Origin: Escherichia coli
GTDB taxonomy: Bacteria > Pseudomonadota > Gammaproteobacteria > Enterobacterales > Enterobacteriaceae
NCBI RefSeq assembly: GCF_044324785.1
Contig: NZ_CP172127.1
Length of the DNA stretch: 64,000 bases
Direction: 5' to 3' (one strand)
The notes below the pieces were generated by a model. That model was not told where the DNA came from and made no database searches. It was given only the letters and a program-made list of their open reading frames with translations. The position numbers were made by a program, and so were the translations under genes. Positions 3,510 to 62,521 of the stretch are shown here, in pieces. Position 1 is the first letter of the stretch, and every line of letters starts with the position of its first letter.

Positions 3510-3757
3510 ATATGCAATAATTAATTGCACTGCCCCGCCAGCTATAATCGCGGGGCTTCGTTTTTCAGGGATCACAAAACCCGAAACTTCTTCCATCTGC
3601 CAGCAACAATGCCTCTTCCTTTATAGTGTTCTCCGGATCTACAGCATCCTGAAGTAGCGCGATGTACTCACTGGCTATCTGCATCAGAAAGTTAAAAACA
3701 ATGTTTTTAACCTATAAAAATGGCGCTGTATTTGCGCCATTTTTATCATTCAATGCA

Positions 3758-21493: not shown

Positions 21494-21653
21494 TCCCCGC
21501 CGTGTTTTGCGAGGCGCATTCCAGATCCACATTGCGCCGCGCTCACCGCTGTAAAACCGCTTGCCGTTCATAACCGATCGAAGTATCTTTCTCCCGCGCC
21601 TGCAAAATCAGGCGTCGGGATTAGCCTCCTGAAAACCGTTACAGGCGACACTT

Positions 21654-21673
21654 GACGCACCAGCGTCTTTTTT
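21654..21673 (+). terminator. Weak intrinsic-terminator-like hairpin downstream of hsdS
   Basis: GACGC-ACCA-GCGTC hairpin followed by TTTTTT; the 5-bp stem is marginal. Confidence 0.35.
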
Positions 21674-21835
21674 GTGTCGTGCGTTCGGCTACACCTCAAT
21701 GGCGGGCCGGGCGGGGGCGTCGCAAGACGCGCCGGTTTCCTGTAACGCCGGTAAGGCTAACCCCGTCCGGTTCCGCCACCCATGAGATTAGCCTCTCTAG
21801 TGGCGGACATAATAAACCGTTACAGGAGATGCCCT

Positions 21836-26204: not shown

Positions 26205-27083
26205 TCAGTAGTTATGTACTGAAGGAGGTAATTCTTTATTCTTAAGTCTCATCCATGCGGAAATATTCGTTGGTCCGTCTGGCTCATTAATATCAACATC
26301 TCGTGTGTGATTGATTAAAACGTCTCTCGCCATTCCGATAACATACGAGAATTCATGACCGTAGTCGTAGCATCTGCCGGAATAGTTCGATTGAATTTGT
26401 TTCAGCGCCGGATACAGTTCGCGGAATAATGCCTGTGAGCGGTTGGCATAATCCCATAACCATACAAGGCTGTTTGCTTCTTTTGCAGAAAGCTCGTTGG
26501 TTTTCTTCTCTTGTTTGCCAATGAACTCACCTTCAAGCACTACCCTGTGGATGTACTCTACGGCCAGCGGGATTTGTTCAATTGAAAGTTCATCAATGCT
26601 GTCAATACCAAAACGCTGATGAACCATATTGTATGCATCGTCATAGCGAAGTCCTTTCTTTCCTACCAGCATGTTTACTGCATCGCGTAGCGGTGTTCTT
26701 TCCTCAACAGTGGTTTTCTTTCCTTTTACATACTCGCCATGTTTGCGAATTGAAGGCAGAACTTCTGCTGTTACCCACTTGCGGAATTTGTGCGGGACTG
26801 AACCTTTATTGACTGCATCGCGGCAGCGCAGAACCAATGTATACATACCTGATTCGCTCACAATGCTTAGATTCTGCTCACCACCAAGGGTGTAACTTAA
26901 AGTTACTCCCTTTTCATCGTCATCAAGTGCAGTAAGCGCCTTGCGTGAGTTAGTCAAATCTAAAGCATCACAAACATCTTTAGCTACAAACCACGGCTCA
27001 CCGCACTTGTTGATGACGCGGATTTCACTGTCGCCGAATTTGAAGATGGTGAAATCGTTTTGTGCCTTTGCTATACTTTTCAT
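26205..27083 (-). CDS. ant: Antirepressor Ant (Bro-N/KilAC type) of the immI region
   Basis: 292 aa; N-terminus [25 protein letters not shown] is typical of P22-like Ant; sits downstream of arc. Confidence 0.8.
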
Positions 27084-27151
27084 GTCAATATTTCCTAATC
27101 CGATTTGTTGATGCCGAAGCCCTGACTGTTACAGCAGTTGGGGCTTCAACT

Positions 27152-47392: not shown

Positions 47393-47468
47393 TGGTGCTG
47401 GTTAACGGACTTGAACCGCTAGCCATTCGCTTACAAGGCGACCGCTCTACCATTGGAGCTAAACCAGC
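47393..47468 (-). tRNA. Prophage-encoded tRNA (76 nt; anticodon read as UGU, Thr)
   Basis: Hand fold of GCTGGTT...AACCAGCACCA: 7-bp acceptor stem, D-arm GCTC/GAGC, T-arm AGCGG-TTCAAGT-CCGTT, CCA encoded; the anticodon stem has one mismatch. Confidence 0.55.
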
Positions 47469-47473
47469 ATGTT

Positions 47474-47548
47474 TGGCGGGACAGCGTGGACTCGAACCAC
47501 GATAAGAAGGTTAACAGCCTTCCGTAATGACCTTTATACGACTGACCC
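47474..47548 (-). tRNA. Prophage-encoded tRNA-like gene (75 nt; anticodon read as GUU, Asn), possibly degenerate
   Basis: T-arm CGTGG-TTCGAGT-CCACG and anticodon arm GAAGG-CTGTTAA-CCTTC are clean; the acceptor and D stems each have one mismatch; CCA encoded. Confidence 0.45.
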
Positions 47549-50541: not shown

Positions 50542-50733
50542 TTATGTCGGTGATACTTCGTCGCTGTCTCGCCATACGTCCTCCTTTTCCTGCGGTAGTG
50601 GTAAAACTCCTGTTGGTGTTCTTTCACACCGGAGACACCATCGATTCCAGTAAGGTTGCCCGGGTCGAAAGCGATCGCCTTCCTTTCGCTCTCCACATCG
50701 ATAACAGTGCTTCATGCGATCACCATTTTGCAT
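50542..50733 (-). CDS. Small zinc-ribbon protein (about 57-63 aa)
   Basis: [32 protein letters not shown]; frame choice between two overlapping ORFs is uncertain. Confidence 0.35.
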
Positions 50734-51302
50734 GGTTTAATCGCCATGCCGGTAGCCAGTTCAAAATCGGAGTCGCACTGATTGCCCCACATATCCCACC
50801 CGGTCACTTTGTCGCGGCTAAATAACTCACAGCGCGGCACGTCGCCAAGCAACTTAGCTAACATGTCTCTTACGATCGGTGGTTTTGCACTGTGCTCCAT
50901 TCTCGGTGCGGTAAAGTGCTGGCATATGGAAGCGTCCATTCTCTCAGGCAACCGCCCTCGAACAGCAAACAAGCAATCCTCGCTATTTGCCCTGGTCATA
51001 TGCCCCATTCCGATCGCACTGTTGCCTTTGTGCTTATTGGTTTTGTGCCAGGTAAAGCCTTTCATAGTCATCAACCTGAATCCCCACGCCTCAACTACCT
51101 TTAGCGCTTCGGCTGGCTGTGTCGGCACCCACCACATCGCTAACAAGCAAGATTCTGGATCCGCTAAATCCCATACTGGCAGTCGGCAAATGTCCTGAAC
51201 ATTCATAACATCGTATTTATGTCCAGCACCGCGATTGCCATCGTTGGCTTTGTCGCGATATTGCCAAGGCGGATCTGCGTAAATAAGTCGGTATTTGTTC
51301 AT
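50712..51302 (-). CDS. Phage DNA N6-adenine methyltransferase (MT-A70-like, DPPW motif)
   Basis: [15 protein letters not shown]... catalytic DPPW near the N-terminus; 196 aa. Confidence 0.8.
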
Positions 51303-52870: not shown

Positions 52871-54247
52871 TCATACGTCAGCCCCTTGTGCATATCGTCT
52901 GCCACGCGCAGCAGGTGCATTTGATGCTGTGCAAATCTGTCTGGCTTCATCCTGGTCACATGCAACAAAGTGTCCGTTACAGAACCGCTGGTAAACCGTA
53001 CCAAGCGAGCCAAAACGGTTTTTCGTCACAATGATTTCAGCAAATGGCGCGGCGCTACTGTTCTCGTCATATACCGCTTCCCGATAGAGCATGATGATTG
53101 AGTCTGCGTCCTGCTCAATGCTTCCTGAATCACGCAAATCTGCGTTTGTCGGGCGTTTGTTTGGTCGCTTCTCAACATCGCGCGAAAGCTGACTCAGGGA
53201 GATAACAGGCGTTTTCAGGTCTTTCGCCATCGCCTTCAGGCTTCCGGAGATGTGAGCAATTGCGAGGTCGTTGCGGTCTGCTTTCGGCTTCTCAATCAGG
53301 CCAAGATAATCCGCCATGATGAGTGACAGGTTTGGATTTTCCTGTTTGTGCCGCTCTGCGATTGAGCGAATTTCTTCTACCGATAACCGCGAGGCATCGA
53401 CTACCCATACATCCAAATCTGCAAGCTGACTCATGCCGTTAGCAACACGTGCCCAGCCTTCGTCATCCATCGATGCAGGATTTCGTAGCACGCTAACCGA
53501 CATCCTCCCGGCGTTGGCAATGCTTCGCTCTGCAATCTGCAATGCGCTCATTTCCATCGAGAAAATCAACACTCCGCGCCGGACGTCAGAACCAGGAATA
53601 ACACGACTTGCAACGCCTTCGGCAATCTTCAGCGCCAGTTCGGTTTTCCCCATACCAGGACGAGCAGCGATTATCACCAGGTCTTCCGCGTTCATCCCTC
53701 CGGTGATGGCATCAAGTTCTTCGATTCCGGTCTTCAGGGTATCTGACTCTTCTCCGTTCCTCAGACGCCTGTCAAGCGTGTCAGTGTAGTCAGTGATGAT
53801 TTCACCTAACCGTACAGGTTTAACCTCGTCACGGGGCTTTCTGATGGCTGAGAGACGCTTTACAAGCTCATCCATCGCTTGACTCGATGCGTCGATGGTT
53901 CCGCTCTGAATTGGTTCACGCATTTCATCCATGATTTCCAGCACCAGACGGCGGTGATAGTTATCCGCGACCATTCCGGCATATCCCTTCAGGTTTGCGG
54001 CACTCGGGCAGTTTTTGCTGGTCATCAGGATTGACGTGAAATGCTCCTCTCCGCACGCCTCGGCAACCATCAGCGCATCGATTAGGTTTCTGTTTCTCGC
54101 CTGCTTGCGGATAACCTCGAAGGCTTTCCGGTAGAGCGGAATTGAAAACGCTTCCGGCTCCAGCGTTGCCAGAACGTCGCTGGCGGTTGGTGTTAATCCA
54201 CCAATCAGCAGGCCACCGATAACGCTCGCTTCGATATCCTGTCTCAT
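52871..54247 (-). CDS. Replicative DNA helicase (DnaB-like; P22 gene 12 analogue)
   Basis: Walker A ARPGMGKT plus DnaB-type N- and C-terminal domains; 458 aa. Confidence 0.9.
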
Positions 54248-55065
54248 GCAATCCCCCTGTCTGCAAACTTCCCTTCCCGTACTCCAGTTAACGAATCTTC
54301 CCTCAGCAGGTAATCAAAATCAGCTGTCCAGCCCGTGTCGTTGTCTCCGAAGTAAAACGGCTTGGCCTGATGCACAAACGCCCTGACATACGCTCTGAAA
54401 CCGTCCACGTTTGGCGTTTTCAGTTGCGGGATGATTTTCTTCAGGCGGCGTTTGCGTTTCTCGTTGACCGCAACAGCGTGTGGCAGTCTGTCACCGACTT
54501 CGGTGTTGTAGGCGTTCAGGAAGGATTCGTAGTCGATTCGTTCTGCCTTGCGACGTTCAGGTTTAACCTGCCCATCGCCACCCCCGTTAGGGGGTAAGGG
54601 GGTATTTGTATTTATTGTCTTTTGTATATTGTCTTTTGTGTTTAGCTGACTTGGCTTATACCCATTAGCCGACTTGGCTAATGTTTTATTAGCTGTTTTA
54701 GCTAATGTTAAGCTGTCCTGGCTAATCCACTGAGAAACAACCTTGTTCACTCCGATTTTCACGCCATCAGCAATGAGGAATTTACGCTCGATAAGCTGGC
54801 GCTTGGCAGCGCAAACATGAGTGTGATGAATACCTGTCATGGCTGCTATCTGCGTGTTTGTGAGTCGATCCATCGGCTTATTGAATCCGTATGTCTTGCG
54901 CATGATAGCGAGCATCACCTTCAACTGCCGGACGGTTAAATCAGCCATCAGCAGACTGTCGGTAATCTCGTTAGCAACGCGCATGAAACCATCTTCGGTA
55001 TCTGCCACGCGATGCTCCACGACCTCAAGTTGAGGCCTGTAATCAGCTAACTTAACGACGCCCAT
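54244..55065 (-). CDS. Replication initiation protein (lambda O / P22 gp18-like)
   Basis: 273 aa; N-terminal HTH; the gene contains an iteron-rich AT segment (see repeat feature). Confidence 0.75.
54580..54730. repeat. Putative phage origin of replication (iterons inside the O-like gene)
   Basis: CCCCCGTTAGGGGG palindrome followed by direct repeats TTGTCTTTTGT (x2), GACTTGGCT (x2) and TAGCTAATGTT (x2) in an AT-rich stretch. Confidence 0.5.
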
Positions 55066-55247
55066 GTTTCACTCCTGCTTTGGCTAGTCTGTAAACACCA
55101 ACAAGGCGCTCTGCGAACGCCCTGTTATTTGCTGCGGCTACCACTAATCCCTCAGGTGAATCAGGGTGTCGAATCTCTTCTTTTTCCTGGTATTTCTTAC
55201 GACGTTTTGTCATAATGACTCCTGTGGATTGATCCAGTCTTTCTACA

Positions 55248-55529
55248 TCAGGCCTCGAAGAATTCGCCGTTCTTCGGGGCTTTTTCTTTTGTCAGGTAAT
55301 TGGCAAGCCGCTTAGTCAGCTCAGCCATTTCATCGTCTTCGATTCCGTATTCCAGAACAGCCAGCATCATGCTTACCTGCGAGAAGAAACCATTCTTCCA
55401 TCGGCTTACCTGATATTCAGGAACCCCCATTGCTCGAGCGAATGTCTTCTGCCCCATCAGTGCCAGTTTGTTCAGCAAGGCTGACTCGATGCGAGCCGCT
55501 TTCTTGCTTTTAGTTGCAATAGTACCCAT
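55248..55529 (-). CDS. CII-like transcriptional activator
   Basis: ARIESALLNKLALMGQKTFARAMGVPEYQVSRWK...MLAVLEYGIEDDEMAEL parallels lambda CII. Confidence 0.8.
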   Translation of the reverse strand: MGTIATKSKKAARIESALLNKLALMGQKTFARAMGVPEYQVSRWKNGFFSQVSMMLAVLEYGIEDDEMAELTKRLANYLTKEKAPKNGEFFEA

Positions 55530-55605
55530 AGATAATTTCCTTAATGATTAGATAGAGTTGGCTTCGCAAAGAAACGCAAAACCATAGAGATTTGTTTCTG
55601 GTAAT

Positions 55606-55637
55606 GCCCTTTTTCAGGGCGGGGATGTGTAAGAGCG
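55606..55637 (-). promoter_or_regulatory. nutR (boxA + boxB)
   Basis: Minus-strand boxA CGCTCTTAC and boxB GCCCTGAAAAAGGGC, between cro and cII. Confidence 0.8.
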
Positions 55638-55645
55638 TTAATAAC

Positions 55646-55876
55646 TTAAGCGGCCATTAATTCAGGCCAGATGCTTTCCCAATCAACCGGATGAAGGTCT
55701 TTGCGAGTCACTTCACCATTGCTGAACTTCTCAATCAGAACACAAAGTGCTGCGCCCAATTCATGATTACGGCTAAGTGCTTTCCTCAAATAGCCGATAG
55801 AAGTTCCGCACTTGGTGGCAAATTCTCTCTGCTCTTCCAGTGAAAGGGAGTTCAGATACAAGCGGAGTTCTTCCAT
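55646..55876 (-). CDS. Cro-like repressor (HTH)
   Basis: 76 aa, divergent from cI across the operator region; HTH segment REFATKCGTSIGYLRKALS. Confidence 0.7.
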   Translation of the reverse strand: MEELRLYLNSLSLEEQREFATKCGTSIGYLRKALSRNHELGAALCVLIEKFSNGEVTRKDLHPVDWESIWPELMAA

Positions 55877-55910: not shown

Positions 55911-55965
55911 TTTACCTGTAGGTAAAAAGCAAATCAATACCCATAGGTTATTTACCGGCAGGTAA
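55911..55965. promoter_or_regulatory. Right operator region (OR) with PR/PRM
   Basis: Palindromic sites TTTACCTGTAGGTAAA (55911-55926) and TTTACCGGCAGGTAA (55951-55965), consensus TTACC-N4-GGTAA. Confidence 0.7.
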
Positions 55966-55984
55966 TCAAAGATAGAATTAAATC

Positions 55985-61046: not shown

Positions 61047-61394
61047 GTGGAAGAAGAAATCTTCACTCGTGAAGAGGCAGCGTCGTATCTGAAGGTAGAC
61101 AAAGGCACTATCACGCAGTGGATACGAAGTGGACGACTTCAGGCCGCAAAGATAAATCCAGATAAACCTAAAAGCCCATATCGCATTTGCAAGTCAGACT
61201 GCATTGCGGCGCTTAAGTCTGTGAGACACAATAGCGCGGTGAATGCGGTTGATGTGCAGGAGGTTAAAGCATGTCAATCAAACTACGCGGTGGCACGTGG
61301 CACTGTGATTTCGTCGCGCCAGATGGATCAAGAGTTAGACGCTCTCTTGAAACATCGGACAAAAGGCAAGCGCAAGAACTTCACGATCGTCTAA
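61047..61394 (+). CDS. xis: Excisionase (Xis-like HTH)
   Basis: 115 aa; N-terminal REEAASYLKVDKGTITQWIRSGRL HTH; immediately upstream of and overlapping int. Confidence 0.65.
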   Translation: MEEEIFTREEAASYLKVDKGTITQWIRSGRLQAAKINPDKPKSPYRICKSDCIAALKSVRHNSAVNAVDVQEVKACQSNYAVARGTVISSRQMDQELDALLKHRTKGKRKNFTIV

Positions 61395-62431
61395 AAGCAG
61401 AAGCGTGGAGAGTAAAAAATCTCGGGGAATCACCGAAAAAGCTATTCAAGGAAGCCTGCATACGGTGGCTGCGTGAGAAATCGGATAAGAAGTCCATTGA
61501 TGATGACAAGAGCATTATATCGTTCTGGATGTTGCACTTCAGAGAAACCATTCTCTCAGACATAACAACAGAAAAAATAATGGAGGCGGTAGACGGGATG
61601 GAAAACCGCCGCCATCGCCTGAACTGGGAAATGAGCCGGGACAGGTGTTTGCGGCTTGGCAAGCCAGTGCCGGAGTATAAACCAAAGCTGGCAAGCAAAG
61701 GAACGAAGACGCGGCATCTGGCAATACTTCGCGCTATTCTCAATATGGCTGTTGAATGGGGATGGCTTGACAGGGCGCCCAAAATATCAACACCACGCGT
61801 TAAGAATGGACGAATCAGATGGCTTACAGAGGAGGAATCGAAGCGCCTGTTTGCAGAAATTGCTCCTCATTTCTTCCCTGTGGTCATGTTTGCAATCACG
61901 ACAGGCCTTCGCCGTTCCAACGTTACAGACCTTGAGTGGTCACAGGTCGATCTGGATAAGAAAATGGCATGGATGCACCCTGATGAAACAAAAGCTGGCA
62001 ATGCGATCGGAGTTCCTCTTAACGAAACCGCATGCCAGATATTAAGAAAACAGCAGGGTCTCCATAAGAGATGGGTGTTTGTCCACACCAAACCTGCCTA
62101 CCGAAGCGACGGAACAAAAACAGCAGCGGTAAGGAAGATGAGAACCGACAGCAACAAGGCATGGAAGGGAGCGTTAAAGCGGGCAGGCATTAGCAACTTC
62201 CGCTTCCATGACCTGAGGCATACCTGGGCAAGCTGGCTGGTTCAGTCCGGTGTCTCTCTTCTTGCACTTAAAGAGATGGGAGGATGGGAAACTCTCGAAA
62301 TGGTTCAAAGATACGCCCACCTTTCAGCCGGGCATCTCACCGAGCACGCGAGCAAAATCGATGCGATTATAAGTCGCAATGGCACAAATACGGCACAAGA
62401 GGAGAACGTGGTTTACTTAAATGCGAGGTAA
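61271..62431 (+). CDS. int: Tyrosine integrase (P22-like)
   Basis: 386 aa; catalytic-domain residues (...RFHDLRHTWASWLVQSGVSLLALKEMGGWETLEMVQRYAHL) and N-terminus like P22 Int; its stop lies inside the att repeat next to thrW. Confidence 0.9.
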   Translation: MSIKLRGGTWHCDFVAPDGSRVRRSLETSDKRQAQELHDRLKAEAWRVKNLGESPKKLFKEACIRWLREKSDKKSIDDDKSIISFWMLHFRETILSDITTEKIMEAVDGMENRRHRLNWEMSRDRCLRLGKPVPEYKPKLASKGTKTRHLAILRAILNMAVEWGWLDRAPKISTPRVKNGRIRWLTEEESKRLFAEIAPHFFPVVMFAITTGLRRSNVTDLEWSQVDLDKKMAWMHPDETKAGNAIGVPLNETACQILRKQQGLHKRWVFVHTKPAYRSDGTKTAAVRKMRTDSNKAWKGALKRAGISNFRFHDLRHTWASWLVQSGVSLLALKEMGGWETLEMVQRYAHLSAGHLTEHASKIDAIISRNGTNTAQEENVVYLNAR

Positions 62432-62491
62432 CTTATTGATTTAAATGGTGCCGATAATAGGAGTCGAACCTACGACCTTCGCATTACGAAT
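62428..62491. repeat. Prophage attachment-site repeat (attR): 64 bp overlapping the thrW 3' end
   Basis: Identical to 22652-22715. Confidence 0.85.
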
Positions 62492-62521
62492 GCGCTGCTC
62501 TACCAACTGAGCTATATCGGC
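62446..62521 (-). tRNA. thrW: tRNA-Thr (anticodon CGU)
   Basis: Reverse complement reads GCCGATATAGCTCAGTTGGTAGAGCAGCGCATTCGTAATGCGAAGGTCGTAGGTTCGACTCCTATTATCGGCACCA; canonical cloverleaf; sits beside proA. Confidence 0.9.

Follow-up and report, generated by a model that had tools for sequence, protein, structure and literature searches.

A probable HK97-type lambdoid replication origin within the O-like initiator gene of an Escherichia coli prophage

The window, by which we mean the whole 64,000-nucleotide stretch of E. coli DNA that was analysed, contains a P22-like/lambdoid prophage integrated at thrW. The prophage is inserted beside tRNA-Thr(CGT) and proA, and the thrW junction is present. 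It includes an O-like gene predicted to encode a replication initiator, and the features of the locus are as follows.

54244 to 55065, minus strand: O-like replication initiator gene, 273 aa (identified by open reading frame, Pfam, NCBIfam and DNA identity)
52871 to 54247, minus strand: DnaB-family replicative helicase gene, 458 aa (Pfam DnaB and DnaB_C)
55052 to 55876, minus strand: early-right operon context upstream of the O-like gene (open reading frames, Pfam), with the next three genes
55646 to 55876, minus strand: cro-like gene
55248 to 55529, minus strand: cII
55052 to 55213, minus strand: 53-aa open reading frame overlapping the start of O
55250 to 55282, plus strand: oop-like antisense terminator hairpin, 14 pairs and a T-run, opposite the 3' end of cII
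about 55211 to 55240: conserved oop promoter/5' sequence adjoining the oop-like hairpin
61271 to 62431: integrase gene

Amino acids 19-113 of the O-like protein match Pfam Phage_rep_O (E 5.8e-33) and NCBIfam phage_O_Nterm. This part (approximately aa 19-113) is predicted to be an N-terminal origin-binding domain. It is followed by a linker (approximately aa 114-162), which is encoded by the candidate origin and has no Pfam domain match, and by a predicted C-terminal partner-binding domain (approximately aa 165-273). The helicase gene is located directly downstream and its start overlaps the stop of O by 4 nt. The helicase is presumed to be the partner recruited by the C-terminal domain of O.

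The genes are in the order cI, cro, cII, orf53, O, helicase, with a gene for a LexA-like cI repressor divergent from the transcription of cro, cII and O. This early-right order is the one annotated in HK97, Nil2 and ST104. By analogy, transcription from the pR side probably passes through the candidate origin. A consensus promoter scan found no minus-strand pR-like promoter, and its sole site was on the plus strand at 55951-55978. PMC3349717 gives a conserved oop motif of 33 bp, which the window sequence matches. No Rfam family covered the candidate origin or oop in the window.

Anatomy of the candidate origin

The stretch of interest is 54581-54726, which corresponds to positions 340-485 of the 822 in the O-like gene and to the linker-coding middle of that gene. 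On the gene strand it contains four iterons, then an A-rich tract, then a C/G-rich element with a palindrome. The iteron consensus, ATTAGCC-N5-GGCTAAT, is 19 bp long, with a 7-bp half-site on either side of a 5-bp centre and the two half-sites inverted relative to each other. The start-to-start spacing of the iterons is 20/24/23 bp.

54708 to 54726, minus strand: iteron I1, ATTAGCCAGGACAGCTTAA, gene position 340, frame 0; right half-site degenerate and the weakest
54688 to 54706, minus strand: iteron I2, ATTAGCTAAAACAGCTAAT, gene position 360, frame 2
54664 to 54682, minus strand: iteron I3, ATTAGCCAAGTCGGCTAAT, gene position 384, frame 2; perfect 7-bp inverted half-sites
54641 to 54659, minus strand: iteron I4, ATAAGCCAAGTCAGCTAAA, gene position 407, frame 1; abuts the A-rich tract
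54603 to 54640, minus strand: A-rich tract, CACAAAAGACAATATACAAAAGACAATAAATACAAATA, 38 bp, 25 of 38 positions A on the gene strand, GC 21%
54581 to 54602, minus strand: C/G-rich right-hand element, CCCCCTTACCCCCTAACGGGGG, including the 14-nt palindrome
54581 to 54594: palindrome, CCCCCTAACGGGGG, 14 nt with a 5-bp stem and a 4-nt loop, forming the last 14 nt of the C/G-rich element

An earlier note on this DNA had described a palindrome followed by short direct repeats in an AT-rich window in the middle of the replication-initiator gene. The palindrome, CCCCCGTTAGGGGG on the plus strand, is found at 54581-54594, the GC content is 0.30-0.38 across 54580-54740 and about 0.5 in the flanks, and the gene that encloses them is the one with the Phage_rep_O match. 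The note had also counted three different repeats, each present twice. These strings do occur in the sequence, but the division into three separate repeats is a poor one. Two of them, GACTTGGCT and GCTAATGTT, are fragments of a single family, the four-copy 19-bp dyad iterons. The third, TATTGTCTTTTGT, occurs twice with a period of 14 and comes from a 14-nt tandem duplication within the AT-rich tract at 54603-54640.

We searched the 64 kb with the 19-mer consensus, allowing up to 3 mismatches, and obtained 3 matches that all lie within 66 nt, where 0.01 were expected. I1, the remaining copy, differs from this consensus at 4 positions and was picked up by repeat search. A looser dyad, TAGCY-N5-RGCTA with at most 1 mismatch, had 5 matches in 64 kb against 4.2 expected. 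Because this count is uninformative, the weight rests on the full 19-mer test and on clustering, with 4 of the 5 loose matches falling within 82 bp.

No 30-40 bp of duplex elsewhere in the replication module is as unstable as the AT-rich tract, which lies approximately 2.9 standard deviations above the window mean and is presumed to be a DNA-unwinding element. When folded as a single strand, the candidate origin gave z = -5.3 relative to shuffled sequences, the hairpins being formed by iterons 2 and 3 and by the C/G palindrome. A terminator-like match at 54663-54683 was rejected as a separate feature; it consists of iteron 3 and the T's that come after it on the antisense strand.

Iterons and initiator domains among homologues

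The earlier note had named lack of conservation of the repeats in homologous O-like genes as evidence against its reading. We found that ATTAGCC iterons are kept in homologues with N-domains 52-64% identical to that in the window. Four ATTAGCC-type iterons at unchanged spacing occur in the Yersinia phage vB_YenM_06.16-1 (N-domain 64% identical), and five occur in the Cronobacter phage phiES15 (58% identical). Two scans of IMG/VR provided 118 distinct homologous segments. Three to six ATTAGCC-type iterons are present in 93 of these (N-domain 52-64% identical), and 86 of the 93 have the 20/24/23 spacing. The other 25 (N-domain 43-55% identical) are without ATTAGCC iterons, and nearly all have a different dyad iteron in the same place. 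In one exception, an insertion occupies the iteron position.

The other iterons among homologues are TGTCTCT-N5-AGAGACA, TGTTACC-N5-GGTAACA, TTCCCC-N5-GGGGAA, a lambda-type ATCCCTC..GGGGAT and a TTTACC..GGTAA type. They are followed by the same CACAAAAGA... tract, so the start of the tract is conserved across iteron types. Iteron number varies, with 5-6 copies in phiES15 and some IMG/VR relatives of the window type. When the window, the Yersinia phage, phiES15, P22 and lambda were aligned, the iterons were in register and gapless except in phiES15, where one insertion was needed for the extra iteron.

Of 86 distinct homologous flanks, 71% have a short GC-rich palindrome (perfect stem, 5 bp or more) just to the right of the AT tract, compared with 14% of shuffles, a difference that is suggestive rather than a probability since the sequences are related by descent. 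The palindromes themselves differ in sequence among homologues (TCCCCC/GGGGGA, GTCATC/GATGAC and CCCCC/GGGGG).

One part of the N-domain, aligned with window residues 77-88, changes with iteron type. An (I/V)HHTH(V/I)C helix occurs in 94 distinct segments, every one of which has ATTAGCC iterons, and other helices accompany other iterons. An AlphaFold model has a pLDDT of 79.5, with values above 90 over residues 70-100. In this model the N-domain is a winged helix, with helices at 45-58, 70-77 and 81-93 and a wing at 97-106, and the 77-88 segment is predicted to form a turn and the start of helix 3. A Foldseek search with the N-domain model gave weak matches (best E 2.9e-3), all of them winged-helix domains of DNA-binding regulators and mostly from dimeric families (CRP/FNR, MarR, IclR). 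A sequence search of the PDB with O found no relative.

Natural chimeras carry the parts of O in other combinations. Phage 1NRH has a P22 N-domain and P22 iterons joined to an HK97-type C-domain, and TL-2011a has a third N-domain and other repeats joined to a C-domain of that type. The helicase of TL-2011a is the same type as in the window and is interrupted by an intein. In phiES15, ATTAGCC iterons occur with an unrelated C-domain and a lambda-P-type partner. Judged from these sequences, iteron type appears to travel with the N-domain. The C-domain co-varies with the helicase among the phages compared.

Interpretation and alternative explanations

We conclude that 54581-54726 is very probably the theta-replication origin of a P22-like/lambdoid prophage, of the HK97 specificity type and located inside the O-like gene. 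By analogy with lambda, where four inverted-repeat iterons are bound by O dimers and a 40-bp AT-rich region is opened on O binding, with transcriptional activation needed (PMC5043065), this stretch would have origin activity. O dimers would bind the four 19-bp iterons through the N-terminal winged helix, with a recognition helix starting IHHTHV (aa 79-84), and the phased 20/24/23 bp array may be bent or wrapped into an O-some. The 38-bp A-rich tract would then melt with the help of negative supercoiling and rightward, pR-side transcription. Dimer binding, distortion of the array and opening of the AT tract are modelled on lambda (PMC5043065, PMC7466680). The C-terminal domain of O would bring the phage's own DnaB-family helicase onto the opened DNA, a route expected to replace that of lambda P, host DnaB and chaperones; this step is modelled on P22 (PMC8022706). 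Host primase and polymerase III would start bidirectional replication.

One alternative is that this is a genuine HK97-type origin by descent that is silent here, the prophage being defective or never induced. At most approximately 72% of the surrounding 10 kb was matched contiguously in any E. coli genome, indicating a mosaic element. Against this, the O (273 aa) and helicase (458 aa) genes are full-length and share 98-100% identity with those of the plaque-forming phages HK97, HK446 and mEp213, the iterons and the AT tract carry the majority alleles, and cI, cro, cII, integrase and the thrW junction are all present. We regard a silent origin as unlikely.

The AT-rich/C-G block might instead be kept mainly as a recombination linker, that is, as a mosaic junction rather than for origin function. 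The block, approximately 60 nt comprising the AT tract and the C/G element, is identical bar one loop base between P22 and HK97-type genes that are otherwise roughly 50% identical, and the chimera junctions of 1NRH and TL-2011a lie exactly at it. However, the CACAAAAGA... opening and the AT-richness are retained in six or more iteron types, lambda included, and the AT-rich region of lambda has been determined experimentally to be the unwinding site (PMC5043065). Use in recombination would follow from such constraint and is compatible with origin function. Recombination as the main reason for conservation is, in our estimate, quite improbable.

The repeats could also reflect a low-complexity peptide linker with no DNA function. 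The region does encode two similar hexapeptides, LAKTAN and LAKSAN, and lacks a Pfam domain, but the four repeats lie in three frames (0, 2, 2 and 1) and encode three unrelated kinds of peptide (ISQDSL, LAKTAN and LAKSAN, KPSQLN). In comparison with the Yersinia homologue, third-codon identity is 71% (20/28) in the iteron block and 42% in the N-domain, and the iteron half-sites are 88% identical. The dyads and the 20/24/23 spacing are also kept in lambda, P22 and Yersinia phages despite unrelated peptides. This pattern points to selection on the DNA of the iteron block rather than on the peptide.

Polymorphism within the type gave a different result that could be taken to favor a peptide linker. 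Among 84 near-identical genes the expected depletion in the iterons was absent, with 16 of 86 sites variable compared to 22 of 339 in the N-domain; the AT tract was variable at 1 of 38 sites. Eight of the 16 variable iteron-block sites are in the 5-bp centres, four are Y7/R13 toggles that switch between variants other iterons already use, and most are singletons. Because the changes fall in centres and toggles, variation among such close copies is not informative as a test in this case. Reading frames and third-codon identities together exclude a purely coding repeat, and we consider a peptide linker highly improbable.

A plasmid-type iteron origin, with monomeric Rep on direct repeats, assistance from DnaA and copy control by handcuffing, would likewise have repeated initiator sites beside an AT-rich tract (PMC5043065), but we reject it and give it almost no credence because each repeat is dyad-symmetric and thus of the dimer-site type, the array is located within the initiator gene, that initiator is Phage_rep_O rather than a plasmid Rep family, and a search for DnaA boxes (TTWTNCACA) found none within 4 kb of the candidate origin.

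Beyond replication, we raise two tentative ideas, which we hold to be possible but doubtful. The HK97-type origin may act as a trigger for defence systems (OLD, Lamassu) that detect hairpins of single-stranded DNA at the origins of phages, because its four hairpin-capable iterons and GC mini-palindrome are predicted to fold stably once melted. The basis for this is a 2026 preprint in which OLD binds lambda iterons and HK97 is reported to be OLD-sensitive. In parallel, the helix/iteron pairs may yield a simple recognition code for O, because IHHTHV is strictly paired with ATTAGCC half-sites and five other helix/iteron pairs are available.

Comparison with lambda, P22 and HK97-type phages

The earlier suggestion of a lambda-style origin within O agrees with lambda feature by feature, and the position is that of the rep_origin annotated in P22. 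The features found here are location in the gene, at least four dyad iterons with 20/24/23 spacing, a strand-asymmetric AT tract of approximately 40 bp directly downstream and a palindrome to its right. The lambda ori also lies within the initiator gene, between the parts coding for the N- and C-domains, and has four dyad iterons of approximately 19 bp. The annotated iterons of lambda start at 39034, 39054, 39078 and 39101 (array 39034-39118), which is the spacing of the window. The adjacent A-rich tract of lambda, approximately 40 bp, opens with the same CACAAAAGACA motif, and the opening common to both is ACACAAAAGACA..ACAAAAGA. After the iterons, lambda reads ACACAAAAGACACTATTACAAAAGAAAAAAG... 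and the window reads ACACAAAAGACAATATACAAAAGACAATAAA... Lambda likewise has a palindrome to the right of the tract, although it is much longer than, and unrelated in sequence to, that of the window. The upstream order cro-cII-(oop)-O is shared.

The differences from lambda lie in specificity and in the partner. Lambda iterons are ATCCCTC-N5-GAGGGAT, whereas those here are ATTAGCC-N5-GGCTAAT. The lambda N-domain is 43% identical to that of the window and has LPVKRC in the helix segment in place of IHHTHV. The C-domains are unrelated, and the partner in lambda is P, the loader of host DnaB, in contrast to the phage DnaB-type helicase here. The Stx phages 933W and P27 have the same architecture with six iterons, which are lambda-type, an O of lambda specificity and a lambda-type P (PMC7466680), unlike the four iterons of another specificity in the window.

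P22 (NC_002371) has a rep_origin at 32840..32984 within gene 18, annotated as similar to phage lambda. It aligns to approximately 54581-54725 of the window with base-for-base positional correspondence. Gene 18 has four repeats of approximately 20 bp that are unlike those of lambda, and gp12 is a DnaB-type helicase (PMC8022706). P22 is reported to need neither the host helicase (dnaB) nor the loader (dnaC). P22 gp18 and the window O protein are approximately 51% identical overall; outside the nearly identical block described above, the gene has diverged, iterons included. Identity is 61% in the C-domain, 43% in the N-domain and 90% between gp12 and the window helicase. P22 has iterons of the TTTACC-N5-GGTAAA type and, in gene 18, no match to the ATTAGCC type. 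The candidate origin does not belong to the P22 origin-specificity group, which shares the same iterons and N-domain. Since the iterons differ and the N-domains are only 43% identical, the two origins are predicted to differ in specificity.

The closest relatives are the HK97-type phages. At the DNA level, the O-like gene shares 98-99% identity with O of HK97, HK446, mEp213, Nil2 and the Stx phages 1717 and 2851, and with gene 18 of the Salmonella phage ST104. With HK97 the identity is 98.4% over the whole gene, with identical iterons in the alignment, and the helicase is identical to HK97 gp55 at 456 of 458 residues. For ST104 gene 18, "HK97" has been listed as a predicted type of origin-binding specificity (PMC2629481). 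Members of this group have an O N-domain at least approximately 92% identical to HK97 gp54 (PMC2629481) and the same iterons; the O gene and iterons of the window place it in this group. Its helicase is a partner of the HK97/P22 type, with DnaB N- and C-terminal domains and a gene directly downstream of O. In the near-identical records of Nil2, HK97 and ST104, no ori is annotated in any of the three. In the literature covered by our search, we found no experiment on the window sequence or on HK97-type iterons.

The main use of this assignment is in annotation, where it locates the ori in a very common module consisting of an HK97-type O and a DnaB-type helicase. IMG/VR contains at least 389 stretches that encode relatives of O, and an O gene at least 95% identical is present in roughly 100 deposited phage records. 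The comparative set, with six iteron types that each have a recognition-helix segment of their own, an unwinding tract that is conserved and a palindrome that keeps its position, is also a tidy body of natural data on initiator-origin specificity that leaves current understanding unchanged. The HK97 O/P module (gp54/gp55, and its counterparts in HK446, mEp213, Nil2, 1717, 2851 and ST104) has the same iterons, AT tract and palindrome as the window, whose copy differs from it by a few SNPs and in nothing of substance. The window origin, as an HK97-specificity lambdoid ori, is an element of an already known kind in an already sequenced form.

Iteron type and the N-domain of O

In O, the 273-aa replication initiator of the lambdoid prophage, residues 77-88 (window 54811-54846) form a segment of the N-domain whose sequence tracks the iteron type from one homologue to the next. 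This switching segment falls where the predicted recognition helix of O begins.

Helix segments and their paired iterons in alignment A3 of O homologues
IHHTHV, paired with ATTAGCC
LSRQNV, paired with TGTCTCT
LPVKRC, paired with ATCCCTC
MAPTKC, paired with TTTACC
LPETRV, paired with TTCCCC
ISREKV, paired with TGTTACC

Insertions were observed in the replication genes of two relatives. In Escherichia phage TL-2011a (JQ011316; L007 1887-3387) an intein comprised of Hint and LAGLIDADG homing-endonuclease domains splits the DnaB-type helicase just past the Walker A region, and the split gene sits downstream of an O gene that shares its C-domain with the window O. The IMG/VR segment L152 (IMGVR_UViG_3300013104_000715) encodes an O homologue with an in-frame insertion (~1500-1800) where the iterons usually stand. 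The peptide it encodes includes ...GHIYVFAASENGPVKIGFTTRDAEERLREVNGSRYFGE... and may be a mobile nuclease-like domain. A search for iterons in the L152 homologue detected none.

RNA genes and a methyltransferase gene

An antisense unit resembling oop lies opposite the 3' end of cII:
55211-55282, plus strand, oop-like antisense unit

Its conserved oop promoter and 5' sequence, recognized from the oop motif as quoted in PMC3349717, lie ahead of a strong terminator hairpin that has 14 pairs and a T-run. Rfam at gathering thresholds gave no match across window 55211-55282. Rfam did identify other RNAs in the window, and the sar RNA adjoins a 292-aa ORF (26205-27083):
3552-3752, minus strand, IS009, close to the left end
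21596-21783, plus strand, isrK adjoining C4 antisense RNA
27085-27151, plus strand, sar RNA (P22 immI-type antisense regulator of ant)

Two phage-borne tRNA genes are located within the prophage, whose nin region contains a methyltransferase gene downstream of NinB:
47393-47548, minus strand, tRNA-Thr(TGT) and tRNA-Asn(GTT)
50712-51302, minus strand, MT-A70-family DNA methyltransferase

Phage Thr(UGU) tRNAs have been reported to counter the tRNase of the OLD defence system (2026 preprint).

Attachment junction

An integrase gene is adjacent to a tRNA gene that adjoins proA:
61271-62431, plus strand, integrase
62446-62521, minus strand, tRNA-Thr(CGT)

Compared with its best full-length matches in E. 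coli, the chromosome flanking the junction shows ~97.5% identity. This tRNA-Thr(CGT)/proA/integrase site is the prophage attachment junction, at thrW, the site used by P22-like phages.
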